This document shows positions 2,902 through 64,000 of a stretch of 64,000 nt of DNA, in pieces. The translations under genes were made by a program, and so were the position numbers. This stretch comes from Microcystaceae cyanobacterium (GTDB taxonomy: Bacteria > Cyanobacteriota > Cyanobacteriia > Cyanobacteriales > Microcystaceae): positions 1 through 64,000 of the forward strand of contig JBGTGT010000123.1 of the NCBI GenBank assembly GCA_041746575.1, written 5' to 3'. How positions within the stretch are numbered: the stretch's first letter is position 1; every line of letters starts with the position of its first letter. The notes under the pieces are model-generated. The model saw only the letters and a list, made by a program, of their open reading frames with translations, ran no database searches and had not been told where the DNA came from.

Positions 2902-2938
2902 CTTTTACAGATGATGAAGTAAGTACTATAAAATCAGG

Positions 2939-5835: not shown

Positions 5836-5862
5836 CAAACCTTTGTTTTGAGTTAGATTAAC

Positions 5863-6294: not shown

Positions 6295-6403
6295 AATGGG
6301 TTGATGATAATTAAAAATTAAGAGTTGGCATTTGATTTGATGATACGATTATAAAAGAAGAATCAATGAGCTATTCTTTTCCCCATAGAGAATCTCATCT
6401 AGA

Positions 6404-7573
6404 CTAACGTTCTTTGATTTGCACGACTTGATTAAGCTTATTCATCGCCACCGCAATAATCAAATTAAAGCTAAGATAAACCATCATCACCACCACTAAC
6501 ATTTGTACAGCTTGTCCCGTTTTATTGGCAATCGTAGAAGAAATGGCATAAATATCACTATAACCGATCGCAATCGCTAAACTAGAATTCTTCGCTAAAT
6601 TGAGAAATTCACTGGTTAAGGGGGGAATCATTACCCGTAACGCCTGAGGAAAAATAACCAATCGCATCACCAATCCTGACGGCAATCCTAAGGCTTTGGC
6701 AGCCTCCCATTGCCCTTGAGAAACTGATTGAATTCCTGCTCTAACGACTTCTGCGATAAAAGCGGAGGTATAAGCGGTCAAACCAATTAACAAGGTGCTA
6801 AATTCAGGAGAAAGGCTCAATCCTCCCTTAATATTTCCCGCCGCTTGATCATAAATAGGCAATTGCCAATCTACTCCCCAAAGGAGTGTTATGAACAAAG
6901 CGATCGCCAACGCGATTAAAATGAATGGATAGCCTCGGATAGAGCGTCCCTGTTCAATCCGAATGTTGTTGCTTTTTCGCCACAAAATAAGGCTTAAAGT
7001 GGCACAAAATAAAATAAATAAACAAGATAAACCTGTTTTGGCATCAAAATTTGGCCAAGGTAAATAAATCCCCTGATTCGAGAGAAAAATATGCTGAAAA
7101 ATGGCGAGAGGGTTATTGATTTTGGGGAGTTTGAGAAAAACGGCAAAATACCAGAAGAATAATTGGAGTAATAAGGGTGTATTTCTTAGTATGTCGACAT
7201 AGATCATAGACAACTGACGAATTAACCAGTTATCCGATAATCTTGCAATTCCTACCGTAATTCCCAATAAAGTTGCCAAAACAATACCACTAATCATTAC
7301 CCGTAGGGAATTTATTAACCCAACCAACAAAGCACGACCAAAAGAATCTGTCGATTGATAGGGGATAGGAGAATCACCGATACGAAAAGAAGCGGGACGA
7401 TCCGAGTCAAAAAGGAATTTAAAGCTTAAATCTAGACCCAAACGATGAATATTCGCAATTAAATTATGACCTGCATAGAAAAACAATCCCAAGATGAGCA
7501 GTAAGACAAAAGCTTGACCGATTATTTTAAGAATACGTTCATCGCGCCAAAAAGGAATTTTTTCTGATTTCAT
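6404..7573 (-). CDS. Polar amino acid ABC transporter permease (AapQ/BztB/NatG-like)
   Basis: RNTPLLLQL, AFIAEVVRAGIQSV..GQWEAAKALGL, LNLAKNSSLAIAIGY. Confidence 0.9.
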   Translation of the reverse strand: MKSEKIPFWRDERILKIIGQAFVLLLILGLFFYAGHNLIANIHRLGLDLSFKFLFDSDRPASFRIGDSPIPYQSTDSFGRALLVGLINSLRVMISGIVLATLLGITVGIARLSDNWLIRQLSMIYVDILRNTPLLLQLFFWYFAVFLKLPKINNPLAIFQHIFLSNQGIYLPWPNFDAKTGLSCLFILFCATLSLILWRKSNNIRIEQGRSIRGYPFILIALAIALFITLLWGVDWQLPIYDQAAGNIKGGLSLSPEFSTLLIGLTAYTSAFIAEVVRAGIQSVSQGQWEAAKALGLPSGLVMRLVIFPQALRVMIPPLTSEFLNLAKNSSLAIAIGYSDIYAISSTIANKTGQAVQMLVVVMMVYLSFNLIIAVAMNKLNQVVQIKER

Positions 7574-46715: not shown

Positions 46716-48242
46716 ATGAATACTTCAACTGAAATTAACCCCTCTTTTTGGATTCAATCCACGCCTCAAACCCATTTTCCGCTCCTCGATGGTGAGATCA
46801 CGGTAGATGTTGCGATTGTTGGCGGCGGCATCGCCGGATTAACTGCTGCTTATTTACTCAGCCGAGCGGGAAAAACCGTTGCTGTGGTGGAAGCGAAACA
46901 AATCGTCACGGGAGTCAGTGGTCATACCACCGCTAAAGTGACAGCATTACATCAACTTATTTATGCAGATTTAATCGACCAATGGGGGGAAGAGAAAGCC
47001 CGACTTTATGGGGAATCCAATTTGTCTGCCCTAGAAAAAGTGGCTGAAATTGTTGAAAGAGAACAGATAGATTGCGATTTTCGTCGTTTACCTGCCTATA
47101 CCTTCGCGCTACCCCATAATGATCTGAGCAAAGTTGAGGCAGAAGTCAAAGCCGCCCTTAAATGTGGTCTTCCTGCCTCTTTTGTCACCGACACGCCATT
47201 GCCCTTTACGACGCCGGGGGCTATTAAGGTAGAAAATCAAGCCCAATTTCATGTACGCAAGTATTTATTACATTTAGCAAATCTTGTTGTCAGTAATGGG
47301 GGTCATATTTTTGAACAATCCTCCGTAAAGACGGTAGAAGAAGGGCAACCCCACCGCGTTATCAGTTCGCAAGGCACCGTTAATGCTAAAACCGTCATTG
47401 TAACAACGAACTTACCCATTCTTGATCAAGGTCTCTTTTTTGCCAAAACCTATCCGAAGCGTTCTTATATTGTTGGGGCAACTATTGACCCAGCGGACGC
47501 ACCAGAAGGGGTATTTATTGGTTATGGTAAAGAATATCAATCCATTCGCACCACACCCGATGGAGATGAGCTATTGCTCCTTATCGGCGGACAAGGGCAT
47601 AAAGTCGGCACAAAAACCGATACTGAAACCTGTTATCAGAGTTTAGAAAATTATGCCACCACCCATTTTCCGATTAAAACCCTTAAATATCGCTGGTCTA
47701 CTCAAGATATGGTGTCCTTCGATAAAGTTCCCTATATCGGCAAGTTAACCCCTATCAGTCAAAATATTTATGTTGCTACTGGTTTTAGTTTGTGGGGCAT
47801 GACCAACGGCACGTTATCAGGCATGATTTTATCAGATCTTATTTTGGATCAAGACAATCCTTGGATCTCCCTCTATGATGCCACTCGCGCCACCTCCTTT
47901 GTGACCTCAGAATCCATCAAACAAAACCTAGATGTCGGAAAACATTGGTTTGGCGATCGCTTTAAAGATCTTTTTACCTCAGATTACGAAGATTTAAAAC
48001 CAGACCAAGGAAAAGTCATTACTCGTAATAATGAAAAAATAGCTGTCTATAAGGATTCTCAAGGGAATTTACAGGAAATGTCTGCAGTATGTCCCCATTT
48101 GGGTTGTATTGTTAACTGGAACAATGCCGAACAAAGTTGGGATTGCCCTTGTCATGGGGCGCGTTTTAGCTGTGAAGGCAAAGTCCTCCGTGCGCCTGCC
48201 ACTCAGGATTTAGAACACAAAGAACTATCGGTTAAGGGTTAA
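46716..48242 (+). CDS. FAD-dependent oxidoreductase with C-terminal Rieske [2Fe-2S] domain (YhfW-like)
   Basis: VGGGIAG, GVSGHTTAK, GFSLWGMTNG, CPHLGC...WDCPCHG; ATG at 46716 preferred. Confidence 0.9.
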   Translation: MNTSTEINPSFWIQSTPQTHFPLLDGEITVDVAIVGGGIAGLTAAYLLSRAGKTVAVVEAKQIVTGVSGHTTAKVTALHQLIYADLIDQWGEEKARLYGESNLSALEKVAEIVEREQIDCDFRRLPAYTFALPHNDLSKVEAEVKAALKCGLPASFVTDTPLPFTTPGAIKVENQAQFHVRKYLLHLANLVVSNGGHIFEQSSVKTVEEGQPHRVISSQGTVNAKTVIVTTNLPILDQGLFFAKTYPKRSYIVGATIDPADAPEGVFIGYGKEYQSIRTTPDGDELLLLIGGQGHKVGTKTDTETCYQSLENYATTHFPIKTLKYRWSTQDMVSFDKVPYIGKLTPISQNIYVATGFSLWGMTNGTLSGMILSDLILDQDNPWISLYDATRATSFVTSESIKQNLDVGKHWFGDRFKDLFTSDYEDLKPDQGKVITRNNEKIAVYKDSQGNLQEMSAVCPHLGCIVNWNNAEQSWDCPCHGARFSCEGKVLRAPATQDLEHKELSVKG

Positions 48243-48316
48243 GTAAGGTCAGTAAAGGATCACGAAAAGAGGAAAGCAAAGACTATAAGAGCCCAATTTC
48301 CTCTTTTTCTTCTCTT

Positions 48317-50389
48317 TTAAAGTAACATCAATAAAGGCCCAGTTTGCTCTGTACCCCTGACATTTAGGTCACTGTGACAGAAAATTAGTTTTTCTTCTAC
48401 TCTCGCTAAAAGATCCTCGAGAAGACGGCTCAAACGCGCTTTATCCGCTTCCACTTCATCTTCAAGAGAAATCGGTCGTCCAGACCAATCTTTAAGGAAA
48501 ATCGGCGCACCTAAGAGGACGGCAGACCCCCCTTTTTCCCAAAGCGGTGAGGCAATATCTAGCCAAAAATGCCATTTATGAGAACGTCGCAGAGAACGAT
48601 ACTGAAAAATCGTTGCTAAGGTCACAGCCTCCTCTTTTTGACCAAAAGATTGAACAGGGCGGGGATTAGCGGTAATTGTGCCACGTTTTAGCAACTGCAA
48701 AAATTCTTTGAGGTTCATTTGCACAAAATCAGCTTTTTTTTGATACAATTGAACTCTTTTGCTGATTTCCCAATAATGCTGGCACGTTTCCATCAATTCT
48801 CGCAAGGCAGAGGCTTGATCATAGGAGAGAGAGGAATTAAAATCGATCAGTTCATTCATTGCCCCGTGTAAAACCATCAAAGGACTAGGGGACGGTTGTT
48901 GAGAAATTTTCGCTTGTGTTTCTTCAATCCATTGACAAATTCTTCGATAGGCTTCCGTTGCTCGATATCCCAAGCGATCTCGACGAGAAAAGGACTCAAG
49001 GGGTAATAAACGAGGATTTTCAGGATCAATATGATAGCAATAATCCACTATTAAACCGGCACGAACGGGGTCAATATCGGGAATTAAACGTTTTCCTATA
49101 AAATTTTGCTCTATTATGGCTTTTTGGCTTAAAATAACTAGCATTTCTGCCACTTCGTCTTTTAGAACCCATCTTCCTAAACCAGAATAGACTAAACCCA
49201 GTAAGGTTAATAAGGCACGCACGAGAGGAGAACTGATGAGAGGACGTTGTTCGTTTAACGCCGTAATGGCAATCCCTGACGCTGCAATAATCTCCATAAG
49301 ACTATATCGGGCAATTTCATCTAAACCGGGGGAAATAATGGCAATTTCTTCGGGTTTTATTTGCTTCTTTTCTACCGCTTCAATAATATAGGCGGCCGTT
49401 TGCCGTAATAATTCTGACCGTAAAGGGGTTTGAAGGGACTGAACAAAAGGGGGCAAAGAAACGATATTAAGCGGATTGAGGGCTAAAGGAACGATAATAT
49501 CAACCAATTCTCTGGCCAGTCCTCCTGTTGCTTCTAACTGGATTATTTCACAGCGATTAGCTAATTGGGAAACCGCCGTGGCATCTGCTCCCAATCCTAA
49601 GCGAATTTGACCCTGCGGATTAAAGGTAAAAACGCCATTAGCTCCAGTATTTAAGAGTAAATTTGCTAATTGAACAAAAATAGCCGGATAATCGTCTAAA
49701 TCATCTGCAAAAATCCCTTGATAACGTTCTTGAAGATAACGTTGATACTTCACATCGGGCAGTAAATCGCGCCAGTAGAGGGTATAAATCAAGCCGTAAC
49801 TTAATAATCCTCTCTCTAAACACCAGTTTTGCCACTCAATAATTAATTTACCCCGTAAAGCAATGATTTCCTCTGTTTCTGCTCCTAAACCCACTTCTGG
49901 CAAGCCTTCTCTGAGTAATACGGGAATCTCCTCAACGGGCAGGCCACTTGTCCCCGCTAGTTGCAGTAAATCCAAGGTTTGACGAACAAAACGAGATTTG
50001 CTTACTTCATTTAAGCTTAACCAGTCTTTTTCAAGGGAAGGCCGCCATAACTGAGTTGCTAAGTCTTGTTCCGTTTCAGGGCGCAATCTGAGGGGAAATT
50101 GGGCATTCAGTCCGAGCTTTTCAAATAAAATTGGCCAAAATAAGCTTATTTCTTCTGAAATAAAGCCCAAGAACGTTTTACAAAGAATGGGATAACGACC
50201 TCCCACAGCGATCGCTAGTTTATCGGCTAAAACCTTTCTATTATCATCATTTGCGGCAAAAACAAGGCTTTGTGGCATTAATTTCTGTTTTTTTTCATTT
50301 TTTTCTAGCCAATCACAAAATTTCTTCTGTAGTCTTGTCGTTTTGCCACTGCGACTGCTCCCTTGAATCCATTGTGCTGTCTCGCTCAC
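48317..50389 (-). CDS. Cyanobacterial protein with degenerate UvrD/SF1-helicase-like fold
   Basis: P-loop-like GSSRSGKTT, FADDLDDY at the motif II position, EEIAIISP. Confidence 0.6.
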   Translation of the reverse strand: MSETAQWIQGSSRSGKTTRLQKKFCDWLEKNEKKQKLMPQSLVFAANDDNRKVLADKLAIAVGGRYPILCKTFLGFISEEISLFWPILFEKLGLNAQFPLRLRPETEQDLATQLWRPSLEKDWLSLNEVSKSRFVRQTLDLLQLAGTSGLPVEEIPVLLREGLPEVGLGAETEEIIALRGKLIIEWQNWCLERGLLSYGLIYTLYWRDLLPDVKYQRYLQERYQGIFADDLDDYPAIFVQLANLLLNTGANGVFTFNPQGQIRLGLGADATAVSQLANRCEIIQLEATGGLARELVDIIVPLALNPLNIVSLPPFVQSLQTPLRSELLRQTAAYIIEAVEKKQIKPEEIAIISPGLDEIARYSLMEIIAASGIAITALNEQRPLISSPLVRALLTLLGLVYSGLGRWVLKDEVAEMLVILSQKAIIEQNFIGKRLIPDIDPVRAGLIVDYCYHIDPENPRLLPLESFSRRDRLGYRATEAYRRICQWIEETQAKISQQPSPSPLMVLHGAMNELIDFNSSLSYDQASALRELMETCQHYWEISKRVQLYQKKADFVQMNLKEFLQLLKRGTITANPRPVQSFGQKEEAVTLATIFQYRSLRRSHKWHFWLDIASPLWEKGGSAVLLGAPIFLKDWSGRPISLEDEVEADKARLSRLLEDLLARVEEKLIFCHSDLNVRGTEQTGPLLMLL

Positions 50390-50509
50390 AGATTGTCCTC
50401 GCTTAACTTTGCTAATATATTCCCTACAATAGTAGAAAAGATCGAGTCAGTAAGAGGAAATAGGGCATTTAGCCCGTTGATTTGAATTTTTGTTATTCAC
50501 TTAAACACC

Positions 50510-51811
50510 ATGAAAATGCCTTCACTTTTTAAAGCGGTTACCCAATGGGTTTCAGAAACACCCGAAAGAGCCTTAGATAAAGCTTATCGCGCCGCCTGTA
50601 AAATCAAAGAAATTGAAGATAAACATTTTCAAGGTAAACCGGCTTTTCCCGAAAATTCAGCCTTTGGAGAAAGTTTAACTGCCTCTTTGATTTCGGAAGT
50701 CAATGGACATTTAAAAGCGATTGAAATGCGGATAGGAATGTTTAAAACCAGTCGCTATTTTTTGAATTTATATGATCCCGATAAAGTACCAAAACAAGAA
50801 CTAGCAGATTCTTCTGGCGTTGAATCATTAATGTTAGAAAAGTTAAAAATTATTGATCAGGTTACGGCGCGTTATCATCGTCAAGTCGTTTTTGAAAATA
50901 ACAATTCATCTGCAATTAAGCCCCTAACTCAACCTGAAAGTTTAACCGTTAGAAAAGAACCTCGTCCTGAAGCAAAAGATCCTAATCGAAAACTAGAAAC
51001 TGCTACTCAGAAAACGGGGGTTTTACCTCGTTCTTTCCTGAAAACAATTAATAAAATTAAGCAAGAAATTGATCCCAATTCAGTTGATACTGAAGAAGAA
51101 GTTATTAAAAAGTATCGCACTTCCCGTTATAAAACGGCTATTTCAATTAAATTTATTCTTTTTCTTATTATTGTTCCCTTGCTTACCCATCAACTGACGA
51201 AAACTTTTTTATTAACTCCCCTTGTAAGAAATTATTTTTCTTACCACGAACAGATTGTTTTTATTAATCAAGATTTAGAAGAAGAAGCCTTTACAGAACT
51301 CAAGCATTTTGAAGAACATTTACGGTTTCAAACTTTATTAGGAATTGCCCCTACATTAAGTGAAGAAGAAATTGAAGAAAAGCTAAGAGAGGAAGCGCAG
51401 GAAGTTTCAGAGCGATTCCGCCGACGAGGAGTTAATGCTTTTGCGAATATTTTTGCAGATATTTTTTCTTTAGTTGCTTTTGGGGTTGTTATTGCTATAA
51501 GTCGTGAGGAAATCGAAACGGTGAAAGGATTCTTAGACGAAACGCTCTATAGTTTAAGTGATTCTGCAAAAGCGTTTTTAATTATTCTGTTTACGGATAT
51601 GTTTGTCGGTTTCCACTCTCCCCACGGCTGGGAAGTGATCTTAGAAGGGATGGCGCATCATTTTGGACTTCCTGAAAACCGAGAGTTTAATTTTTTGTTT
51701 ATTGCGACTTTTCCCGTCATTTTAGACACGGTGTTAAAGTATTGGATTTTCCGTTACTTAAATCGTATTTCTCCTTCTGCTGTTGCCACTTATAAAAATA
51801 TGAATGAATAA
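50510..51811 (+). CDS. pxcA: Proton extrusion protein (CemA family)
   Basis: TPERALD.AY.AA, LSDSAKAFLIILFTDMFVGFHSPHGWE, ISPSAVATY..MNE. Confidence 0.93.
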   Translation: MKMPSLFKAVTQWVSETPERALDKAYRAACKIKEIEDKHFQGKPAFPENSAFGESLTASLISEVNGHLKAIEMRIGMFKTSRYFLNLYDPDKVPKQELADSSGVESLMLEKLKIIDQVTARYHRQVVFENNNSSAIKPLTQPESLTVRKEPRPEAKDPNRKLETATQKTGVLPRSFLKTINKIKQEIDPNSVDTEEEVIKKYRTSRYKTAISIKFILFLIIVPLLTHQLTKTFLLTPLVRNYFSYHEQIVFINQDLEEEAFTELKHFEEHLRFQTLLGIAPTLSEEEIEEKLREEAQEVSERFRRRGVNAFANIFADIFSLVAFGVVIAISREEIETVKGFLDETLYSLSDSAKAFLIILFTDMFVGFHSPHGWEVILEGMAHHFGLPENREFNFLFIATFPVILDTVLKYWIFRYLNRISPSAVATYKNMNE

Positions 51812-52023
51812 TATATCCTCTCATTTTAGAGACGTTTTATGAAGATAGAGATAAGGCAACAATAACAAAATTGAAGATTGAATCAGGAGGAAAGCTCAGA
51901 TATTCCGCTCATCAAACACTTATCTTAATTTTTTATTAAATTTTCTTGAATTCTTATTTTTTTTTGTTACGTTAAATAGGCTATTGATTCATATCATTAA
52001 TGTAAATACGGAGATTAGAAGCA

Positions 52024-52119
52024 ATGACCACCGACCAACTGCTGTTATTAGCGGGTTTATTACTGCCTGGCCTTTTGCTTTCTGCTTTAGTAATGGGAAG
52101 TTTTGCTAAGGGTGGTTAA
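52024..52119 (+). CDS. Putative 31-aa single-TM small protein (not in ORF track)
   Basis: MTTDQLLLLAGLLLPGLLLSALVMGSFAKGG*, with GGAG ~10 nt upstream. Confidence 0.65.
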   Translation: MTTDQLLLLAGLLLPGLLLSALVMGSFAKGG

Positions 52120-52368
52120 GCTTGAAAGGATGGCTTGAAGCAAATGCTTTGTCAAGAAAGTTTTAGGCGATATTACGTTGAAAATTGTCTTTTTATCCTG
52201 ACCATTTCCCTTTCATGTAGATTCAGTCCAATGAAAGTTTAAGAGAATGTAACCCCCGAATGGGTTATAATCAAAGATTGGGGATTTAACGCTAATGCAC
52301 CTAGTGAGATCGTCTCCCTAAGTTTATTTAGATCCTTCTTTTTGAGTCGTTTACCGTCAAAATATCAG

Positions 52369-53766
52369 ATGAAAGTTACCCAGGAAAAGCTCCCTGACAG
52401 TCAAATTAGTTTAGAAATTGAAATTCCGGCAGAAGTGTCAAAAAATACCTACGAAAAAGTGGTCAGCAATTTTGCTCGCTCCGCTAATATCCCCGGATTT
52501 CGTAAAGGGAAAGTCCCACGCCCCATTTTGTTACAACGTCTGGGAACAAAGAATATTAAAGCCGCAACCTTAGAAGAATTACTGCAAAAAAGCATAGAAG
52601 ACGCCATTAAACAAGAAGCGATAGAAACCCTCGGCAATTATCAACTTCGCTCCAATTTTGAAGAACTGCTTCAATCCTTCAACCCCGGAGAAGCATTTAC
52701 TTTTTCTGCCTCTGTGGATATTCCTCCCACCGTAGAACTAGGGGATTATCAAAGTTTAAGTGTTAAAGCAGAAGAAATCGCCTATAATCCCCAAAAAGTG
52801 GAAGATGCCCTCAAAGAACATCAAGAACAGCAAGCAACGCTGATCCCCGTTGAAAATCGAGGCACAGAGATGGGAGACGTCGTTATTATTGACTATCAAG
52901 CCCGTTATGCCAAAGACGAAGCGAGTGAAGGGATTGAAGGCGTTCAGGGGACAGACTTTAAAGTGGAAATGGAAGAAGGTCGCCTCATTGAGGGAATGAT
53001 AGAGGGAATGGTTGGGATGAAAGCCGATGAAACCAAAGAAATTGCCGTTACTTTCCCTGAAGATTACCCCCAAGAAAATTTAGCGGGGGAAGCCGTGATT
53101 TTTACCGTGACGCTCAAAGAAGTCAAAGCCAAAGAGCTGCCGGAATTGGATGATGAATTTGCCGAAGAAGTCAGTGAATTTGAAACAATAGCAGAGTTAA
53201 GAGAATCTTTAGAAAATCAATTTAAAGAACAAGCCGAAAATACTACCAAAAATAGTATTAATGGTGCAATCATTCAAGAATTAGTTAAGATTAGCACCTT
53301 TGATATTCCTGAGACCTTAGTTCAAGAAGAGGTAACGCAGGTGTTAATGCAATCTGCCACCCAACTCGAGCGGATGGGAGTGGATGTTCGGTCTTTCTTT
53401 ACCCAAGACAATCTACCTATGATGCGGGATAATGCTCGTCCTGAAGCAACAGAACGACTGAAGCAGAGTTTGGCCATCGAAAAATTGGCCGAGGTCGAAG
53501 GATTAGAACTCGACGAAGCGACTATCACCGAACGGAGTAAAGAACTTCGGGAGCAACTACAGGGACAGCAGATTGACGAAGAAAAGTTCAAAGAAGTTGT
53601 GATTAATGAGTTAAAAGTCGAAAAAACGCTGGATTGGTTGCGAGAAAAGGTTAAAGTGGAACTTGTCCCCGAAGGAACATTGAGCGAAGATAGCGAAACC
53701 ATCGCGCAGGAAGATACGGAGGACGTAACGGACGTAGAAGCCGTAGTAGTTACTGAAGAAGAATAA
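52369..53766 (+). CDS. tig: Trigger factor; ATG at 52369 preferred
   Basis: MKVTQEKLP, IPGFRKGKVP signature, FKBP-like TFPEDY, LPELDDEFA. Confidence 0.97.
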   Translation: MKVTQEKLPDSQISLEIEIPAEVSKNTYEKVVSNFARSANIPGFRKGKVPRPILLQRLGTKNIKAATLEELLQKSIEDAIKQEAIETLGNYQLRSNFEELLQSFNPGEAFTFSASVDIPPTVELGDYQSLSVKAEEIAYNPQKVEDALKEHQEQQATLIPVENRGTEMGDVVIIDYQARYAKDEASEGIEGVQGTDFKVEMEEGRLIEGMIEGMVGMKADETKEIAVTFPEDYPQENLAGEAVIFTVTLKEVKAKELPELDDEFAEEVSEFETIAELRESLENQFKEQAENTTKNSINGAIIQELVKISTFDIPETLVQEEVTQVLMQSATQLERMGVDVRSFFTQDNLPMMRDNARPEATERLKQSLAIEKLAEVEGLELDEATITERSKELREQLQGQQIDEEKFKEVVINELKVEKTLDWLREKVKVELVPEGTLSEDSETIAQEDTEDVTDVEAVVVTEEE

Positions 53767-54091
53767 CAAGACTCTATCCCGATCCAAACCCTTAGAAAGC
53801 CCTCTACACTATGATAGGAGGGCGATTTTTTGCCTTTTTTTCTGGAAGGAGGTATCCTGGACAGGGTACGCCGTAGCGGAAGGTTTTGGCAGGATACAAG
53901 CAACTATTACGGAGAAATACGCAAGACTTAAAAAAGAATCAAGAAAAGTTAGGGGATTTTACTTGACTTTTAGGTTTTTTTACAGTTAGATATGAGATGT
54001 AATTTTTGCTTAAAAGGCCTTAAGGTGATCTCACTAAGAGATCTCTCAAAAACCCTAAAAAACGCAAACTCTCTAGGAATCGTACTATCCG

Positions 54092-54784
54092 ATGAAATTT
54101 CCTTTAAAAACCTTAGCTGTGGTTGCTTCTGGCTCTGTTGCCGCTTTTGCGGTTGCCGGTAATGCTTCTGCGGCGATTTTGACCGAATCCTTCTCCGCTA
54201 CCGTTCCCCTGCAAAACACTAACTTTAATACAAGTGTTGCTCTATCCCATTTTGACCCTAGTTTGGGAACCTTGCAAATGGTAACCATTGGCTTAGCAGG
54301 CGTAGTACAAGGGAATGCTTCGGCAGAAAGTCTTGATGCCTCTCCTGCCACCGTTAACTTGAACCTAGGCGCATCAATTACGGCAACTGGCCCCGTTGCT
54401 TTATCAGTAAACGTTACGCCCGTCAATATGCAGGTCTTCAATGCGTCTGCTTTCGATGGAGTAATTGATTTTGCTGGAACCTCTGGTATCGCTTTCACTA
54501 ACGTTACCGGTTCTGATACGGATTCTTCTATGTTGACAGCTCCTCCGGCTGATTTATCTCCCTATATTGGCTTAGGAAACGTTATTATCGGCATTGGTGC
54601 TTTAGGAAACTCTTCCGGCAGTGGCGCCGGTAACCTGATTACCCAATTCCAAACCCAAGCGGGTGCAGAAGTGACCATCACCTATAAGTACGATACGGGT
54701 ACAACGTCAACCCCCGAACCGGCTACCCTTCTCGGCTTAATGGCCTTTGGTGCGGCAGGAATTGCCAGTCGTCGTAAAGGCTAA
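54092..54784 (+). CDS. PEP-CTERM sorted protein (choice-of-anchor E-like domain)
   Basis: Signal peptide, FDPSLGTL, C-terminal TPEPATLLGL-TM-RRK. Confidence 0.88.
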   Translation: MKFPLKTLAVVASGSVAAFAVAGNASAAILTESFSATVPLQNTNFNTSVALSHFDPSLGTLQMVTIGLAGVVQGNASAESLDASPATVNLNLGASITATGPVALSVNVTPVNMQVFNASAFDGVIDFAGTSGIAFTNVTGSDTDSSMLTAPPADLSPYIGLGNVIIGIGALGNSSGSGAGNLITQFQTQAGAEVTITYKYDTGTTSTPEPATLLGLMAFGAAGIASRRKG

Positions 54785-54821
54785 AACAGCAGTCTGTCGA
54801 AAGTATAAGTAAGATGTATGA

Positions 54822-54858
54822 AGTGCGTTTCCTGTATAAGGCGCACTGTTTTTATTTT
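54822..54858 (+). terminator. Intrinsic terminator between the PEP-CTERM gene and convergent ppc
   Basis: AGTGCGTTT / AAGGCGCACT stem followed by GTTTTTATTTTT. Confidence 0.55.
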
Positions 54859-54894
54859 TAGAGGATGATGGAGTAACAAAAACCAACCATCGCA

Positions 54895-57800
54895 TCAACC
54901 GGTATTTCGCATCCCGGCGGCAATGCCATTAATCGTTAATAAAGCTCCTCGCAATAGCTCGTCTTTAGAATAACGATAATGAACGACCCCAGACTGGGAT
55001 TGCTGATAATATTGACGTAATCGAGTCAATAAGGAAACTTGTAGGAAGCCTAACGGTACAATTGTTCCATTGCGAAGTTGTACCGAACGCTGGAGGGGTA
55101 AATCCCCATCTAACAGCCGTTGATGTTCGGTAATCAAGAGAACCATCTGACACGTGCGACGGTACTCCTCAGAAATGCGTTGAAAGAGTCGGTCAAAGCG
55201 TTCCTTATCATTCGGATGGGATAACTCCTTGACATAATGATGAGCCATCTGTAGATCCACCTTAGAAAGGGTCATTTCCACTTTAGAAATCACCATGCGG
55301 AAAAAAGGCCATTTGACATAAAAATACTGCAATAGGGTTAAATTTTCATCGGGGTCACTGGTTAAAAAGGTTTCCAAGGCTGTACCCACCCCATACCATG
55401 CCGGAAGCAGAAAACGACTTTGCGTCCAACTAAATACCCAAGGAATAGCGCGCAGAGTACTTAAATCCTTTTTGCCACTCTTACGTCGTGCTGGACGCGA
55501 ACTGATTTGTAACTCACTAATTTCGGGAATGGGGGTACAAGAAAGGAAAAAATCCAGAAAATCTGGCTGTTCATAGACCAAACTGCGATACGCTTGTCGT
55601 GCCTTGGTAGCCAACTCTTCCATCGTGTCATTCCACGGTTCGATGTCATCAAAGCCACTGCCTAGCAAACTGGACTGAATGACGGCGGTGGCAATATTTT
55701 CTAAGTTATATAACGCTAATTCAGGTAGAGAGTATTTAGAAGCCAATACTTCCCCCTGTTCAGTAATTTTAATCCGTCCATTAATCGTTCCTGTTGGTTG
55801 TGCCATGATGGCCGCATAGGTCGGACCTCCTCCCCGTCCGACTGAGCCACCCCGTCCGTGAAAGAGTCTGAGGTCGATATCGTAAGCTTTAGCTACTTTT
55901 TGTAGAGCTTTTTGGGCTTTATGAATTTCCCAGTTACTACTTAAAAAACCCGAATCTTTGTTACTATCCGAGTACCCCACCATAATTTCTTGCAAATTAA
56001 GCGGTTCAAGTCCTTGCTCGACGATTTTTTGGGGTGCGTCGTGACCCCCCGCTAAGGCACTGCGATAAAGGGGTAAATCGAATAAGCTTTTCATGATGGC
56101 CGGCGCCCTTTTGAGGTCATCTACTGTCTCAAAAAGAGGGGCTATGCGAATCGTCATGGCGTTGGTGGCGGGGTCGTACAGTCCTGCCTCTTGCGCTAGT
56201 AACATCACCTCTAGTACGTCACTGGCCTCATTGGTCATGCTGATAATGTAGGTTTGACAGATTTCTAGACCGAATTCCAGTTGTAATTGACGCAATACCC
56301 TTAAGGTTTCGATGGTTTCAGTTGTTTTAGGGCTAAAGGGAATCTCATGGGGAATAAGAGGGCGACGGGTGCTTAATTCCGCCACTAGCCAGTCAATTTT
56401 TTCCGGTTCTGAGAGGTCTGTGTAGGGGCAGGGTAGAAGTCCTAAATAATCCGCAATTTCAGCAATCGCATCGGCATGAACGGTAGATTCTTGACGAAAA
56501 TCTAGCTGAGTGAGATTGAAGCCGTAAATTTCTACTTGACAAATTAAATTATCTAGTTCTAAGCAACTTAAGCCTGTCTCTGCAAGGGTTGTCCGAATTA
56601 AGGCCAATTCCGACCAAAATTCAATGCCTGAGCAATAACTATGACGGGGATTCATCCGAGTCGCCAGTTGCCGTTCTTCGGGATTTGCTAATAAATTATT
56701 GCGCCTTTTAGTATTTTCAAGGCGTTTCTCAATATACGCCAATTTAAGACGATAAGGCTCTTGACGGTAACGAATCGCTAACTCATCGTAGATGTGGGGC
56801 ATTTCCATTTTGTCCCGTTCTAAGGAGTCGAGTAAACTCTGGGAAACATGACTCCAATGAAGAGAAGGACTGAGAACCTCAGCAAGGTCTTTAATGGCGT
56901 GTAAATATTTTCGTAAGACCATTTCCCGTTGATAACAGGCAGTTTTCCATGTCACCTCTGGGGTGACAAAAGGATTGCCATCGCGATCGCCCCCCACCCA
57001 AGAACCAAAGCGACAAAAATTGGCTTTTGGCGGTCGTAAACGGGGAAAATAGCACTGTAAAGCTTGGGAAAGGCGTTTAGAAAGTTCGGGAATCGCATCA
57101 AATAGGACTTCGTCGAAATAGTGTAGGGCATAGTCCACTTCGTCTAAAACAGTGGGTTTGAACTGATGAAGTTCATCGGTGCGCCACCAAAGGCGAATTT
57201 CTTCCATTAGTTGCGCTTGAGCCGTTTCTGCTTCCCAAGAGGTGGTCAATCCCATCCCTCGAAACGCTTCTTCAGCCTGGTCTAAACAGCGTAAAATTCC
57301 AGCGATACGGCGTTGTTTGCGTCGGATGGTATGACGAACAATTTCTGTAGGATGGGCTGTAAAAACGAGGCGAATATCTAGATGATTGAGTAACCGTTGA
57401 ACTTGTTGAGGCGGAACGTTTAATTGCTTTAATTGTAAGAACAACCAGTGAAATGTGCCATTTTTTTGTGTATTTTCCCCTTCTTCAAGGCTTTTCTCTA
57501 ACATGTTGATGCCAAAAACCAGAGGAGAAATAGATTTTTGGGCTTTTTGACGTGTCTCTGCTTCTTTTTCTTTCTCTTCTTTCATTTCTTGATAATTTGC
57601 CCGTCGAGCCAGTTGCTGATCTCGTTGTTCGTAGTGTTGCTCTACAATATTAATTAATTGGAAATAGAGGGCAAAGGCTCTGGCCGCTCGAATCGCTTCA
57701 TTAAGTTCAAGGGTTTCAATCACTTCAGAAATAGATAAGTCTAAGTCGGCGGCTGTTTGACCTTCTGGGGAACACATTGCCCGTAGTTGATTAAGCAAAT

Positions 57801-57939
57801 CCACTAAATCCTGACCACACTCGGAATGCAAAACGGATTCCCAGAGATTTTCTACCAATTTCAAGCGATGTTGCAGGAGAAGTGTTGAGGTAGTGAAGAT
57901 ATTGGTATTCGTTAGGGAAGATTGAAGTAGCGAACTCAT
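54895..57939 (-). CDS. ppc: Phosphoenolpyruvate carboxylase
   Basis: [53 protein letters not shown]. Confidence 0.98.
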
Positions 57940-58206
57940 GGGAACCTCTAAAAGCGTACCTTAGTGAATAACATAGCGATTAGCTTGACCACTCAATGAT
58001 ATCAGCGATCGTCAAAGATGCGAGAAAAATGGCGGATTGATCCCCTATTTTCTGGGTAATTCCTTAAAAAATGGGCTATTGTGATTTCACAAGCTATCCA
58101 TTGTAGCTTGTATTTTTGATCAAAAAAGTGACGGATTGTACTGAAATCCTACGGTCTAATGGGTTCAAAAACGGAGATCCCTTTGTCTTTTGACAACCGC
58201 ACCGAA

Positions 58207-58416
58207 TCATGAGTCGGTAAAAACGTCCTTTTCATCGGACAGTGCCTCATTTGGCACATTCAGAAGAGGTAAACGTTCTCCCCGAAAGATCTCTTCGCTC
58301 ATTTCACCTATTTGACTCAATCCCTGCTCAATTCCCCGAATAACGGCTATACCAACTAAGAAAGGAGGTGTGAGTAGGCTCAACAAGATTTTGCTATCAA
58401 TTTCAAGGTTATTCAT
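58207..58416 (-). CDS. Small hypothetical protein upstream of ppc
   Basis: IGEMSEEIFRGERLPLL resembles a conserved cyanobacterial small protein; ATG at 58416 preferred. Confidence 0.65.
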   Translation of the reverse strand: MNNLEIDSKILLSLLTPPFLVGIAVIRGIEQGLSQIGEMSEEIFRGERLPLLNVPNEALSDEKDVFTDS

Positions 58417-58691
58417 TGTTAAAGTCCAAAAAAGAGAAAGAGGCTGATGGGTATCATTATAAATTATTTGACCTATTAAAGTCATCAAAGCGAGTCATAG
58501 TAAAGGTTTTCACCCTTCATTTTGCCTTTTTTAGACTGCACTCAGCGATATCTTCGAGAAATTCATTTATTTTTTTTCAGGAAAATTTCCCTTAGGTGGC
58601 GTTGATTAGATTAAGAACAATGGCAGTGAATTTAAACATTGCTTCTCATGTAAAGCTCGATTTAGTTAACCCTCACCTCTTGCAAAAGCTT

Positions 58692-59792
58692 ATGATTGTT
58701 ATCATTAAACCAGCAACACCGCAAATCGAAATCCAAAGAATTAGTCATGAAGTTGCCAATTTCAATGTCAAAGTTGAAAAAACTGAAGGTAACCAAAAAA
58801 TAATTCTAGGCTTAATTGGAGAGACATCTACCCTTGATTTACGCCAAATTCAACAAATTAGTCCTTACATTGAAAAAGTGATTCGTATTGAAAAACCTTT
58901 TAAACGAGTCAGTCGCGAATTTCGCAATGGACAAGCGTCTGCTGTCACGGTTTCCACGCCCAATGGTATTGTAACCTTCGGTGAAGCCTTTCCCCTTGTT
59001 CATATTGCTGGCCCTTGTTCGGTAGAAAGTGAAGAGATGATTGTGGCGATCGCAAAACAATTAAAGGCTACTGGGGCGAAATTTCTTAGAGGAGGAGCCT
59101 ATAAACCTCGTACCTCTCCCTACGCTTTCCAGGGTCACGGAGAATCTGCTTTACACTGGCTAGCGACAGCACGCCAAGAAACAGGATTAGGCATCATTAC
59201 CGAAGTAATGGATGGAGACGAATTACCTCAAATCGCTGAAGTTGCCGATATTATCCAAATCGGCGCAAGAAATATGCAGAATTTCTCCCTCCTAAAGAAA
59301 GTAGGACGGCAAGATAAGCCCGTTCTCCTCAAACGAGGGTTATCCGCTACCATCGAAGATTGGTTAATGTCTGCCGAATACATCCTCGCCGAAGGAAATC
59401 CCAATGTAATTCTCTGTGAGCGAGGTATTCGTACCTTTGACCGCCAATACACTCGAAACACCTTAGATTTATCTGTTGTTCCCGTTTTACGAACTTTAAC
59501 CCATTTACCAATTACCCTCGACCCCAGTCATGGTACGGGTAAAGCTGAATACGTTCCTGCCATGGCCTTAGGAGCGATCGCAGTAGGTGCGGATTCCTTA
59601 ATGATTGAAGTGCATCCTAATCCGGCGCAAGCGTTATCTGATGGGCCCCAATCCTTAACGCCTCAAGCTTATGCCACATTAATGCAAAAAATGGTGACTT
59701 TAAGCGAAACTTTGGGACGGGATTCTCAGCATCCGTTAATCTCTGTTCCCCATCCTTTGCGTGAATCAGAGAAACTGCCAATTTGTGCTTGA
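58692..59792 (+). CDS. aroF: 3-deoxy-7-phosphoheptulonate (DAHP) synthase, type I-beta with N-terminal regulatory domain; ATG at 58692 preferred
   Basis: IAGPCSVES, RGGAYKPRTSPYAFQG, QIGARNMQN, LKRG, CERGIRTF, DPSH, SDGPQ. Confidence 0.95.
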   Translation: MIVIIKPATPQIEIQRISHEVANFNVKVEKTEGNQKIILGLIGETSTLDLRQIQQISPYIEKVIRIEKPFKRVSREFRNGQASAVTVSTPNGIVTFGEAFPLVHIAGPCSVESEEMIVAIAKQLKATGAKFLRGGAYKPRTSPYAFQGHGESALHWLATARQETGLGIITEVMDGDELPQIAEVADIIQIGARNMQNFSLLKKVGRQDKPVLLKRGLSATIEDWLMSAEYILAEGNPNVILCERGIRTFDRQYTRNTLDLSVVPVLRTLTHLPITLDPSHGTGKAEYVPAMALGAIAVGADSLMIEVHPNPAQALSDGPQSLTPQAYATLMQKMVTLSETLGRDSQHPLISVPHPLRESEKLPICA

Positions 59793-59868
59793 GTCTCTCA
59801 TTTTATAGCTTGAACTGTGTCAACACTTATCTTTTCCGTCTTTTGTCAACCTTCCTTTGAACTAAACC

Positions 59869-61590
59869 ATGACGATTCCTTCTAAATCCCAATCCCAAAA
59901 CCTCAGCTTTGTGGGTCAATTTATCCCTCATGCTACTACCGAATCCGTTATCATGATTGGCGATAACCCTCTCACCATTGACGACGTGGTTAAAGTCTCC
60001 CGTCAAAATATCCCCGTTCTCATTAGTCACCAAGAGAAGGTGTTACAAGGGGTTCAAGCCTCCTGTGATTGGGTCGCTGAAGCAGTGGCTTCTGGTGAAC
60101 CCATTTATGGTATTACGAGTGGTTTCGGCGGCATGGCAAATGTGGTCATTAAACCCGAATTAGCGAAAGAATTGCAGAATAATCTGATGCGCTATCATAA
60201 GGTAGGAGCAGGAAAACCCTTGCCTTTGGCAGATATTCGGGCAGGAATGCTCTTGAGAGCGAATTCTCATCTTTATGGTGCGTCTGGTATTCGTTTAGAA
60301 CTGATTCAACGCATTGAAACTTTTCTCAATGCAGGCGTTACTCCCCACGTTCCCGAATTTGGCTCAATTGGCGCAAGTGGCGACTTGACCCCCTTAGCTT
60401 ACATTTGCGGCTCATTAGTAGGGTTGAATGACTATTATACGGTGGATTTTCAAGGGGAAACCTTAACAGCCCCCCAAGCACTAGAACGCCTAGGATTACC
60501 GACACTGGAATTACTGCCCAAAGAAGGTCTGGCCATGATGAATGGTACATCAGTAATGACGGGAATTGCGGCAAATTGCGCTTATGACGCTCAAATTCTC
60601 TTAGGATTATCTTTGGCATCTCACGCTCTTGCTCTACAAGGGTTAAACGGCACCAATCAATCTTTTCATCCTTTTATTCATCAGTGTAAACCCCATCCCG
60701 GTCAGGCGTGGTCTGCTCAACAAATGCTCAACTTAATTACGGATTCTCGCTTAATTCGCAATGAATTGGATGGATCTCACGATTATCGCGGGGAACAACC
60801 CATCCAAGATCGCTATTCTCTCCGTTGTCTTCCCCAATACACGGGGCCAATTGTGGAGAGTATTGCCGATATTATGCGCCAAATTGAGGTAGAAATTAAC
60901 TCAGTCACCGATAATCCGTTAATTGATGTGGCTAATCATGCCAGTTATCACGGGGGCAATTTCTTAGGGCAGTATATTGGGACAACGATGGATCAATTGC
61001 GCCACTGTTTAGGATTACTGGCAAAACATCTTGATGTGCAGATTGCCCTGTTAGCGATGCCAGAATTTAATAATGGTTTATCGGCTTCTTTGGTCGGTAA
61101 TACGGAGCGTCCTGTCAATATGGGTCTTAAAGGGCTACAGATTACAGGTAACTCGATTATGCCCTTGTTGACCTTTTACGGCAACTCTTTGGTTGATCGC
61201 TTTCCCACCCATGCTGAACAATTTAATCAGAATATCAACAGTCAAGGGTTTGGTTCTGCTAATTTAACCCGTCGTTCAATCGAAATTTTCCAGCAATACA
61301 TCGCCATTGCTTTGATGTTCGGTGTACAGTCAGTGGATTTACGAACGAAGAAAATCGCTAATCATTATGATGCGACTCAATGTCTATCTCCTGCCACTTT
61401 ACCCTTGTATTTAGCCGTTAAAGATGTAGTGGATAAAACCCCTTGTGCGCAACGTCCCTACATCTGGAACGACAACGAACAGGCATTAGACGAACATATT
61501 GCCCGAATTTCGCAAGATATCGCCACAGGAGGTCAAATTGTGCAAGCGATTCGCCAAATGATTCCCAGTCTCAAAGATAGTTTGAATTAA
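59869..61590 (+). CDS. MIO-dependent aromatic amino acid ammonia-lyase, likely tyrosine ammonia-lyase
   Basis: MIO-forming GSIGASGDL, catalytic Tyr loop PIYGITSGFG, QDRYSLRC, NSVTDNP, HGGNF; selectivity segment LQNNLMRYHKVGAG. Confidence 0.92.
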   Translation: MTIPSKSQSQNLSFVGQFIPHATTESVIMIGDNPLTIDDVVKVSRQNIPVLISHQEKVLQGVQASCDWVAEAVASGEPIYGITSGFGGMANVVIKPELAKELQNNLMRYHKVGAGKPLPLADIRAGMLLRANSHLYGASGIRLELIQRIETFLNAGVTPHVPEFGSIGASGDLTPLAYICGSLVGLNDYYTVDFQGETLTAPQALERLGLPTLELLPKEGLAMMNGTSVMTGIAANCAYDAQILLGLSLASHALALQGLNGTNQSFHPFIHQCKPHPGQAWSAQQMLNLITDSRLIRNELDGSHDYRGEQPIQDRYSLRCLPQYTGPIVESIADIMRQIEVEINSVTDNPLIDVANHASYHGGNFLGQYIGTTMDQLRHCLGLLAKHLDVQIALLAMPEFNNGLSASLVGNTERPVNMGLKGLQITGNSIMPLLTFYGNSLVDRFPTHAEQFNQNINSQGFGSANLTRRSIEIFQQYIAIALMFGVQSVDLRTKKIANHYDATQCLSPATLPLYLAVKDVVDKTPCAQRPYIWNDNEQALDEHIARISQDIATGGQIVQAIRQMIPSLKDSLN

Positions 61591-61728
61591 GGAAGGTGTG
61601 AGGGATAAGGTACGAGGGGTTAATGCGGCATCGTTCTATATTTTCTTAATCCTCTCGTCTTCCTTGCTCAAAATTTCTGAATTCCACCATCAATCTACTG
61701 TATCCTTTGTCAACCTTAACCCCCTTAT

Positions 61729-62253
61729 ATGATGATGACACTCAACTCAACGAATCGCACCCCCAATGAATTAATCGGTAAACATCTCGTTTATACCTAC
61801 GATAATGGCTGGCAATACGAAATTTATGTCAAGAATGCCCATACCTTTTGCTACCGTATCCATAGTGGCATTGTCGGCGGTCGTTGGGTTACTGATCAAT
61901 CAGCCGATATTGTGCAAATTGCTGACTATGTTTTCAAAATCTCTTGGGATGAACCGACAGGAACGGTCGTTTGCGTCACTGTTAATCTAGAACGCCGAGA
62001 GATTCATGGAGCGATCTTTTTACCCCAATGGATTGAACAAAATCCCCAAAAAACCGTTTGCTATCAAAATGAGCATCTGGCGCAAATGTATCATTATCGA
62101 GATACAGGAGCTACTTATCCGAAAATGGTCGTTTGTGAGTTTGCCACGATTACTTTTATGGAAGATTGTGGCGCAGACCGAGATGATGTGATTAATTGTC
62201 ATCCTAGTGAATTACCGTCCCATTTTCCCTATCTAGATCGCCTTGCTTCTTGA
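61729..62253 (+). CDS. padC: Phenolic acid decarboxylase
   Basis: YTYDNGWQYE.Y.KN, YRIHSG.VGGRWV, KISWDEPTGT, HG.IFLP.W...P.KTVCYQN; the two Tyr, Arg and Glu catalytic positions are present. Confidence 0.93.
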   Translation: MMMTLNSTNRTPNELIGKHLVYTYDNGWQYEIYVKNAHTFCYRIHSGIVGGRWVTDQSADIVQIADYVFKISWDEPTGTVVCVTVNLERREIHGAIFLPQWIEQNPQKTVCYQNEHLAQMYHYRDTGATYPKMVVCEFATITFMEDCGADRDDVINCHPSELPSHFPYLDRLAS

Positions 62254-62564
62254 ATCTTGTTTTTTGGGAAAGAATCACTCATTCTCTATTGTTATTGAGA
62301 GACTACCCAAAAATCACTCTCTCAAAGTTTAAATTAACCTAAAAAATGTAAGGATTGATACGGAAAACCGATATTTTGTTAAGAATATCAAGCCCACGTT
62401 AATTGATTTTAATGTGCTTTACAAAGGTTAACACTTAATCATCTGTTGATGATATAAACGCAATTAATGCGGTTCAATGAACAGATTACTGGAATACTGA
62501 AAAACCAATTTCAATTATTTGCCCCATCTTCCCTTATTTATTCTCAAATTCAGGAGATTAAACC

Positions 62565-63476
62565 ATGACATCCATGAAATACAAAGGTTTTCGCATTGCA
62601 ACTCTAATGGCAGTCGGTTCAACCTTAGCCTTCGCAAGCCACGCCAATGCTACTACCCTGAAAGTCACCATTGAAAGTTTAGCCCCTGCCAATGGAGCAG
62701 TAGTGACTCCTCTTTGGTTTGGTTTGCATGATGGAAGTTTTGACTCCTTCGATAGTGGTAGTGCGGCTTCAACAGGTATTATGCACCTTGCAGAAGACGG
62801 AATTGTCGGTTTAGAAGGAACCGTTCCGGGCGTTGTGGATTATTTATTAGCCAATGGACTGAATCCTGCCGTCTTGCCTCCTCCTGATAATACTATTGCC
62901 GGAATTTTTGCCAATAGCGCGGCCGGAGCAAATGGTGGGGTTCAAGGGATCATCACAGACGTTCCCATTGGCATCGGCCCTGGCCAGACTTTTTCAAGTA
63001 AGATTCGCATTAATGACGCGACGCAAAATCGCTATTTTAGCTATGGTGCGATGTTTTTCCCCAGCAATGACGCATTTATTGCTAATGGTAACCCCTTGGC
63101 GTGGGAAATCTTCGATGGAAGCGGTAAATTTAAGGGGGCTGACTTTATTATCGGTCGCAATGATATTTGGGATGCCGGCACAGAAGTCAATACGGAAACA
63201 CCGGATGATGTCCCTTTTACCTTTGATCGGGTTATTTTTGGCACCGACGAAAACGGCGTCATTACTCCTCATGCGGGTTTTCTGCCTGCCGGAAGTGGCG
63301 GTGTCTTGGACTTCAACAATGGCCAATTTGCTAACGCTGACTTTACCAATAATCCAAACTATCAACTCGCCCGTATTACCGTTACTCAAGTACCTGAACC
63401 CTCTGCCATTCTTGGTTTATTCACCATCGCAGGATTAGGCCTATTAGGACGCCAGTTAAAAAAACATAAGGAGTAA
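62565..63476 (+). CDS. PEP-CTERM sorted protein with spondin-N-like domain
   Basis: TPLWFGLHDG, LAEDG, MFFPSNDAF, WDAGTEVNTE, VPEPSAILGL-TM-KK. Confidence 0.9.
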   Translation: MTSMKYKGFRIATLMAVGSTLAFASHANATTLKVTIESLAPANGAVVTPLWFGLHDGSFDSFDSGSAASTGIMHLAEDGIVGLEGTVPGVVDYLLANGLNPAVLPPPDNTIAGIFANSAAGANGGVQGIITDVPIGIGPGQTFSSKIRINDATQNRYFSYGAMFFPSNDAFIANGNPLAWEIFDGSGKFKGADFIIGRNDIWDAGTEVNTETPDDVPFTFDRVIFGTDENGVITPHAGFLPAGSGGVLDFNNGQFANADFTNNPNYQLARITVTQVPEPSAILGLFTIAGLGLLGRQLKKHKE

Positions 63477-63496
63477 TCCCCTTACTGCAAAGTCTA

Positions 63497-63578
63497 TGGG
63501 CAGAGCGAGACTCGAACTCGCAAGACCGAAGCCGCCGCATTTTGAGTGCGGTGCGTCTACCAATTTCGCCATCCGCCC
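63497..63578 (-). tRNA. trnL: tRNA-Leu(CAA), CCA not encoded
   Basis: Acceptor GGGCGGA/TCTGCCC+A, D-loop AATTGGTA, anticodon arm CCGCA-CT CAA AA-TGCGG, long variable arm, GTTCGAGTC T-arm. Confidence 0.97.
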
Positions 63579-64000
63579 GAAGGGTCAGCTTTTTGATTAT
63601 AGTCCTTTTGGCAATGCTTAAGCAAGTGATCGTATTCAGGAGAGCTTGCCCAGCGATCAATTTCTCTTGCCCGTAAAACAGGAACAGGATGGCTCAGTTG
63701 TTCGGTATGCGCCGTTTTTAGCATTTCTCCTAATTGAGTCTCGCTAATCGCATCATAATCTCTCGCTTGCTCGATGAAAGCTCCTAAGTTTAACTGAGGC
63801 GCAAGGGTAGGAGAGCCTCCTGTTAATTTCATCAAGACCGACATCACCACTTTAGGATCTTGCATTGCTAACAAAGCAGCGCGATCGCAACTGAATTCCG
63901 CACAGCGTACCCATTCTAACATCTGTTGTTGTAACGATTGAGCAATCACCGTTCCCCAATTGGGCAATAATTGAGCCGCTAAGACAATGAGATTGGCTAA
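63557..64000 (-). CDS. M48-family metallopeptidase, 3' part (5' end outside window)
   Basis: W.RCAEFSCDRAALL, LMKL.GG, SHP.PVLRA.E; frame stays open to the window edge. Confidence 0.88.
   Translation of the reverse strand, partial: LANLIVLAAQLLPNWGTVIAQSLQQQMLEWVRCAEFSCDRAALLAMQDPKVVMSVLMKLTGGSPTLAPQLNLGAFIEQARDYDAISETQLGEMLKTAHTEQLSHPVPVLRAREIDRWASSPEYDHLLKHCQKDYNQKADPSGGWRNW

Follow-up and report, generated by a model that had tools for sequence, protein, structure and literature searches.

We wanted to know whether a cyanobacterium makes 4-vinylphenol (4-hydroxystyrene) from its own aromatic pool, a question raised by a 64,000-nucleotide stretch of DNA from a Microcystaceae cyanobacterium (contig JBGTGT010000123.1 of assembly GCA_041746575.1; from here on, the window). 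An initial annotation had described in it three intact, co-oriented genes for a 3-deoxy-D-arabino-heptulosonate 7-phosphate (DAHP) synthase (aroF), a 4-methylidene-imidazol-5-one (MIO) ammonia-lyase and a phenolic acid decarboxylase (PAD), and the open reading frames (ORFs) bear this out, with all three on the + strand and spacers of 76 bp and then 138 bp between them (Table 1). In our view these genes probably specify a de novo route from Tyr via p-coumarate to 4-vinylphenol. DAHP synthase is the entry enzyme of the shikimate pathway, and an extra copy would, judging by its family, increase shikimate flux, with Tyr supplied through housekeeping genes. Judging by its residues, the lyase would then take ammonia off L-Tyr to give p-coumarate and NH3, and the PAD, on similar grounds, would remove the carboxyl group without a cofactor to give 4-vinylphenol and CO2. 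Decarboxylation would also remove p-coumarate, an inhibitor of such lyases. The simplest end product appears to be free 4-vinylphenol, which would most likely exit as a volatile, since the pair has no conserved tailoring gene next to it.

Residues of the lyase and the decarboxylase

The lyase (573 aa) matches PF00221 (E = 1e-144) and has the fold, the MIO triad (ASG, within GASGD at residues 168-172) and the residue pair of Tyr-type enzymes; the protein scores below the cut-off of every NCBIfam lyase and mutase model. The closest solved structures are the phenylalanine ammonia-lyases (PALs) of Nostoc and Anabaena (2nyf and 2nyn), with 2nyf, from Nostoc punctiforme, as the best match in the PDB. 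A Y-H pair of the window lyase is aligned to F-L of these PALs, and the N/Q pair is kept. The signature described for tyrosine ammonia-lyases (TALs) is H/L, Y/H, F/H or S/H at positions 89/90 plus N/Q at 435/436 (PMC9321829); the same source lists a TAL from Herpetosiphon aurantiacus and gives, for the Rivularia TAL, a Km of 0.086 mM for Tyr and a Ki of 0.051 mM for p-coumarate. Two H. aurantiacus loci (L077 and L081) encode lyases that are 65% identical to the window's and also Y/H, and the characterised Herpetosiphon TAL is presumably one of these. On the evidence of these residues, we infer that the window lyase acts on L-Tyr, giving p-coumarate. Of the 415 relatives of the lyase that were found, the best 80 were taken, comprising 55 with Y/H, 24 with F/L and one with L/M. 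Further, we note that Y/H and F/L alternate several times across the tree of furanolide-cluster lyases, which suggests repeated changes between Tyr and Phe as substrate.

The PAD (174 aa) matches PF05870 (E = 2e-74) and 15 solved PAD sequences. Catalytic residues of the family have been given as Tyr11, Tyr13, Tyr31, Arg41, Glu64, Thr66 and Thr68 (PMC10915792), and when the window PAD was mapped onto Bacillus subtilis PadC (4alb_A) over the ungapped alignment range, with an offset of +11, all seven were found to be kept, as Y22, Y24, Y42, R52, E75, T77 and T79. The window PAD would thus convert p-coumarate to 4-vinylphenol and CO2 without a cofactor. The genome (4.2 Mb, 134 contigs, 99.8% complete) holds one MIO lyase and one PAD in all, and both genes are rare among relatives: the lyase is present in 3 of 89 genomes of the family, and the PAD in none of 36 genomes of the same family, in 2 of 151 genomes of another, in 9 of 401 genomes of the order (counting the window's own genome and one partial match) and 1 of 301 across the phylum, this one being the window's own.

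The lyase and the PAD form the conserved unit

Eighty of 87 metagenome loci found with the PAD were kept, and a lyase stands beside the PAD in 20 of them (15 of the 54 with at least 1.5 kb of upstream sequence). Within the clade of the window PAD, the lyase is adjacent or one gene away in all seven loci with visible context (the window, L005, L006, L086, L229, L235 and L236); the contig of an eighth member, L085, begins too late to show a lyase. L229 has the order aroF, lyase, spondin/RTX gene and PAD with every gene intact, and in L235 and L236 an F/H lyase is followed by the PAD after 42 bp, with no aroF seen. In FastTree phylogenies, the seven loci form an exclusive clade among 89 lyase sequences (support 0.998), and the same loci together with L085 form an exclusive clade of eight among 90 PAD sequences (support 1.0); L001 (a duplicate of L005) and three short PAD matches were excluded, and S/H lyases were omitted from the lyase tree. 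The internal branching of the two clades disagrees, at weakly supported nodes. Because both genes are rare yet repeatedly stand side by side, their linkage appears to go beyond chance. Compared with L229, dN/dS was about 0.04 for the PAD, 0.05 for the lyase and 0.16 for aroF, at a dS (1.9-3.8) near saturation; these values indicate that all three genes are under purifying selection. We conclude that the conserved unit is lyase plus PAD and not the triplet with aroF, which is intact in three of the seven loci (the window, L006 and L229).

In L086 (positions 1-4216), genes for the methanethiol S-methyltransferase MddA and a class I S-adenosylmethionine (SAM) methyltransferase lie immediately upstream of the lyase-PAD pair, with a gap of 11 bp, which makes this locus a candidate for a methylated vinylphenol.

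The gene that follows the PAD in the window, encoding a secreted spondin-domain protein, has a 56-58% identical spondin/RTX counterpart in L006 and L229, where it separates the lyase from the PAD, and a fragment of such a gene lies upstream of the PAD in L085, so that it is linked in four of the eight clade loci; the window query found no counterpart in the genome of L005. The window's genome contains three paralogues, and other, unplaced relatives score higher. A role for the protein as a phenol-coupling enzyme was considered and dropped, as the fold search with its structure model (predicted local distance difference test score 94) returned F-spondin/mindin domains alone. The gene is likely a co-inherited passenger or an optional fourth gene.

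The DAHP synthase is an extra copy

The aroF product (366 aa) starts at an ATG that agrees with the starts of its homologues, contains the domains PF18152 and PF00793, and scores above the cut-off of NCBIfam PRK13396. A second copy, about 64-65% identical, was found on contig C126, beside a gene that appears, from its sequence, to be mutS2-like. Judged by this neighbourhood, the C126 gene is the housekeeping-context copy, so the window aroF is extra. In the aroF comparison, with this single housekeeping copy as outgroup, the window copy is 66-70% identical to 35 cluster copies; these in turn share 66-74% identity with the housekeeping gene. We regard the window aroF as the counterpart of the furanolide-cluster DAHP synthases.

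Relation to known systems

Among the 76 lyase loci that passed our filter (L046, L051, L065 and L068 were left out for a stop or a short match, and several contigs end early), aroF lies just upstream in 32, a CoA ligase gene is present in 65, and 24 have the full set of CoA ligase, thiamine diphosphate (ThDP) enzyme and FabH-like protein. This set, with aroF and the lyase, is that of the cyanobacterin, maculalactone and nostoclide clusters (PMC13288894, PMC12395478, PMC9324945), in which CybB converts Tyr to 4-coumarate (PMC13288894, PMC12395478) and the nostoclide subcluster of N. punctiforme encodes the structurally characterised PAL NclD (PMC9324945), probably the same protein as 2nyf. The aroF-lyase pairing is therefore not novel but the known head of the furanolide clusters (cyb, mac and ncl). 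What differs is the tail: in the furanolide clusters the head is followed by a CoA ligase, a ThDP acyloin enzyme and a furanolide synthase (CybC, CybE and CybF) and coumarate is activated, whereas in the window a PAD follows instead and the carboxyl group would be lost. None of the three tail genes is present at the locus, and with queries taken from neighbouring clusters the best matches in the genome are 27-30% identical, compared with 48-72% in cluster-bearing genomes. When a furanolide-synthase-like query was run on six genomes of the clade, four gave a FabH-level match only and two had such genes elsewhere. The sister lyases of the clade (L016 and L020, support 0.92) lie in furanolide-type clusters with CoA ligase, ThDP enzyme and synthase. 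We suggest that the unit arose when an aroF-lyase furanolide head was joined to a PAD that replaced these three enzymes, and that it has since spread as a block among distant cyanobacteria; if so, it would illustrate clearly how a biosynthetic cluster can be rewired through a tail swap. Photoactive yellow protein (PYP), whose chromophore pathway combines TAL, pCL and PYP, was also sought: TIGR02373 found none in the one genome searched (99.8% complete), a weak negative since the control genomes all stayed under the cut-off as well. As both the CoA ligase tail and PYP are missing, coumarate has no evident fate other than decarboxylation. A search for styrene monooxygenase matched nowhere, not even in the controls, and carries no weight.

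A natural de novo route to vinylphenol with DAHP synthase and TAL also has a precedent. The bagremycin/ferroverdin (bag/fev) clusters of Streptomyces encode a DAHP synthase (FevY/BagF) and a TAL (BagA), and decarboxylation has been proposed to complete the conversion of Tyr to p-vinylphenol (PMC6692506). As in the window, all three functions lie in one cluster, but the Streptomyces decarboxylase is UbiD/UbiX, which needs prenylated flavin mononucleotide, and the p-vinylphenol is then esterified to aminohydroxybenzoate (PMC6692506), whereas the window has a cofactor-free PAD. The window enzymes score far under the BagF and BagA model cut-offs (305 of 700 and 275 of 1000), and no UbiD/UbiX, aminohydroxybenzoate synthase or ester-forming ligase was found among the ORFs of positions 48000-64000; UbiD was not searched for elsewhere in the genome. 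The window unit would thus work much as the vinylphenol arm of bag/fev does, yet it belongs neither to that cluster type nor to the furanolide clusters.

The PadC/PDC enzymes of Bacillus, Lactobacillus and Enterobacter serve to remove outside hydroxycinnamates, often under control of PadR. They share with the window PAD the family PF05870 and the catalytic residues, but they act on substrate from outside, whereas the window PAD is tied to a lyase predicted to produce its substrate. Unlike the PadR-padC detoxification unit, the window PAD has no adjacent padR, as had been noted from the start: the two PF03551 matches in the genome sit on contigs C8 and C80. The usual detoxification picture is presumably seen at L091, where, read by eye, a PadR-like ORF is divergent from the PAD gene. 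A PAD on a Streptomyces clavuligerus plasmid, the one plasmid record examined, has no lyase within 9 kb. If our reading of the window is true, a textbook detoxification enzyme serves there as the last biosynthetic step.

Engineered PAL/TAL plus pdc strains make 4-vinylphenol by a lyase and then a PAD (PMC10360455), the same two reactions, but with genes from different organisms, in contrast to the natural, selected pair of the window, which could be of use for making 4-vinylphenol in phototrophs, as a TAL and a PAD already adapted to such a host. In the literature searched (open full text, at listing level), we found neither a natural unit of lyase and cofactor-free PAD nor cyanobacterial 4-vinylphenol; supplements of furanolide genome-mining papers may mention it. 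The arrangement is apparently undescribed, the enzymes and reactions themselves being known. PAD proteins of Leptolyngbya sp. PCC 7375, Adonisia turfae and Leptothoe strains belong, by sequence, to the window's PAD clade, so cultured strains may carry the route to the predicted, unreported volatile.

Another gene set with a Y/H MIO lyase was seen in a cyanobacterium of the same family (L200:892-9360, genome G446; the same set occurs in L068), with an aminodeoxychorismate-synthase-like gene, an AurF N-oxygenase, a methyltransferase, aroF, prephenate dehydrogenase and a short ORF that we take to be chorismate-mutase-like. It looks like a route from p-aminophenylalanine to p-amino- or p-nitro-cinnamate.

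Lyase-PAD pairings in other lineages

Two Bacteroidota loci have a Y/H lyase and a PAD spaced about 40 bp or less apart; their PADs form a separate clade. Eighteen high-GC loci (L087-L123) pair a PAD with a lyase just 29-34% identical to the window's, always on the same strand (15 lyase-first, three PAD-first); the PAD clade of these loci (support 0.978) holds two Polyangiaceae-labelled proteins and also L108, in which no lyase was seen in 284 bp of downstream sequence. The high-GC lyases carry S/H in 14 of 14 where the site was covered and N/Q in 12 of 12 read. As S/H is also the pattern of histidine ammonia-lyases and aminomutases, they are at most candidate TALs. We note that these lyases are 566-568 aa long (e.g. 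L099:4293-6504) and score below every NCBIfam cut-off; we regard them as an uncharacterised lyase subfamily tightly paired with PAD. No aroF lies in the stretch examined of the two Bacteroidota or any of the 18 high-GC loci.

A second cyanobacterial PAD clade (L120, L121, L227, L228 and L230; support 1.0) shows partial linkage to lyases. In L121 (positions 2371-6516), aroF and lyase are followed by a CoA ligase gene cut after about 24 codons, insertion-like DNA and then a PAD of this other clade, which could be a snapshot of cluster rewiring or a misassembly. G605 appears to have the gene order of L230 split over two contig ends, with the PAD intact. L120 and L227 have a PAD without a linked lyase, the divergent cyanobacterial PADs L231 and L232 have no lyase in the examined stretch, and genome G637 has a PAD and no lyase.

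Deep branches of the PAD tree have weak support, but the lyases are too different for all the pairings to derive from one ancestor. Tentatively, and as one joint proposal that we hold to be possible rather than probable, we suggest that lyase plus cofactor-free PAD is a recurrent pathway with at least three to four origins (two cyanobacterial PAD lineages, Bacteroidota and the Polyangiaceae-labelled S/H clade), that free 4-vinylphenol is its end product and is emitted as a volatile signal or defence compound, that the cyanobacterial version is a photosynthetic CO2-to-hydroxystyrene route from a cut-down furanolide cluster, and that the linked spondin-domain surface protein is part of the pathway's function. 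If true, the two-enzyme route assembled by engineers to obtain a styrene monomer would have arisen more than once by evolution in bacteria.

Weighing the alternatives

The proposal that the cell makes 4-vinylphenol from its own carbon is thus supported by the active-site residues, by co-inheritance and purifying selection of the genes, by the separate second aroF, and by there being no other evident consumer of p-coumarate. As to the ecological roles first suggested for the product (allelochemical, antioxidant, signal, or UV-screen or sheath monomer), the present results favour none over the others. The part of the proposal concerning carbon supply is weakened: because aroF is intact in just three of the seven loci (in L005 it has an internal deletion, and the examined stretch of L086, L235 and L236 shows none), de novo supply cannot be called a constant trait of the clade, and the window and L006 do not group together in the aroF tree. 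Other points weigh against the proposal as well. Of 10 predicted TALs, two were Phe-only and two inactive, and the cyanobacterial Rivularia TAL was slightly active on Phe (PMC9321829). The clade PADs share F-x-Y instead of I-D-Y ahead of the catalytic Arg and Leu instead of Phe in the H-G-x-I-F-F strand, substitutions that could shift substrate range. A PAD stands beside the lyase in four of the 80 best-matching loci out of 415; that it does so with Y/H lyases (4 of 55) and not with F/L lyases (0 of 24) favours the proposal, but the split rests on about two independent events and is no statistical test. In L230, a PAD with an internal stop, an ORF, the lyase and a P450 gene indicate a pairing that has decayed. 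We note separately that the L005 aroF (L005:7278-7934) lacks about 150 internal residues in frame, by decay or assembly error.

The same reactions might instead yield 4-vinylphenol only as an intermediate for unlinked or lineage-specific enzymes, by O-methylation to vinylanisole, bagremycin-like esterification, thiol addition or oxidative coupling in the sheath. We consider this unlikely. Modifying enzymes are indeed encoded nearby in single lineages (the two methyltransferases of L086; a P450 in L230 and L241), and L235 and L236 have as neighbours a peroxiredoxin and a pyridoxal phosphate enzyme that is presumably cysteine-synthase-like, but no modifying gene recurs across the clade. The genome holds one strong unlinked O-methyltransferase, on C47, but it has no aromatic-pathway neighbour, and the spondin protein, for all its linkage, is modelled solely with non-enzymatic F-spondin domains. 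Esterification of p-vinylphenol in Streptomyces (PMC6692506) speaks for this alternative. Still less likely, we think, is a catabolic or overflow route in which the lyase frees ammonia from the cell's own or imported Tyr, the PAD vents carbon and the phenol is waste. Heterotrophs have the pairing too, and aroF is missing from the stretch examined in three of seven clade loci and in all the Bacteroidota and high-GC loci; on the other hand, an intact DAHP synthase under purifying selection would feed carbon into the pathway, a waste if nitrogen is to be salvaged, the loci read show no linked amino-acid transporter, and the lyase falls in the biosynthetic-cluster group.

Least probable, and quite improbable in our judgement, is that the genes are uncoupled, a leftover furanolide head (possibly Phe-preferring) having come to lie beside a PAD that detoxifies outside phenolics. 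The frequency of aroF-lyase heads (32 of 76 lyase loci), the insertion-like DNA and truncated CoA ligase gene beside the L121 PAD, which show that such joins can be accidental, and the unlinked cyanobacterial PADs (L120, L227, L231 and L232, and G637 without a lyase) would all fit. Such an accident, however, is difficult to reconcile with matching exclusive clades of both genes across several families with synonymous sites near saturation, gaps down to 42 bp (L235 and L236), separate pairings in other phyla and the missing adjacent padR.

Surroundings of the unit

A same-strand arrangement, short gaps and the finding, in a scan, of no terminator-like site on the + strand within the three-gene unit suggest that aroF, lyase and PAD may form an operon. 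Promoter and terminator scans gave counts not above shuffles (8 versus 11.8 and 5 versus 5.3), and RNA folding of the two gaps and two flanks gave nothing beyond shuffles (z -1.5 to +0.8). A 12-mer ahead of the lyase and PAD starts, noticed by eye, has five copies in the genome, two of them in the window; the shuffle expectation (mean 0.01) overstates its significance since the repeat was picked by eye, and it was not seen in the corresponding gaps of relatives.

Table 1. Coordinates of the unit and of adjoining features in the window
Feature	Position	Strand	Basis
Extra type I-beta DAHP synthase (aroF), N-terminal ferredoxin-like domain	58692..59792	+	PF18152 + PF00793; PRK13396
MIO ammonia-lyase, Nostoc/Anabaena PAL and CybB-like group	59869..61590	+	PF00221, residues
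Predicted cofactor-free PAD	61729..62253	+	PF05870, catalytic residues
Secreted spondin-domain PEP-CTERM protein	62565..63476	+	Relatives' loci, structure model
tRNA-Leu(CAA), right-hand flank, outside the pathway	63497..63578	-	
12-nt repeat, copy 1, ahead of the lyase start	59842..59853	+	Exact copy 2 ahead of the PAD start, 61706-61717

A recent genomic island at the tRNA-Leu gene was considered and is not supported: no att-like repeat longer than 10 nt was found upstream, and the GC and GC3 of the unit are similar to those of adjacent genes. Synteny within the genus is broken on both flanks, the tRNA-Leu gene being retained there with different neighbours; what is seen is a patchy distribution. 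A small unannotated ORF (58207-58488, - strand) has no Pfam match and has matches in 29 of 31 genomes searched, marking it as a conserved cyanobacterial protein. Upstream of ppc, positions 58025-58138 contain three short direct repeats and a 9-pair inverted repeat (58089-58111), which are possibly regulatory.

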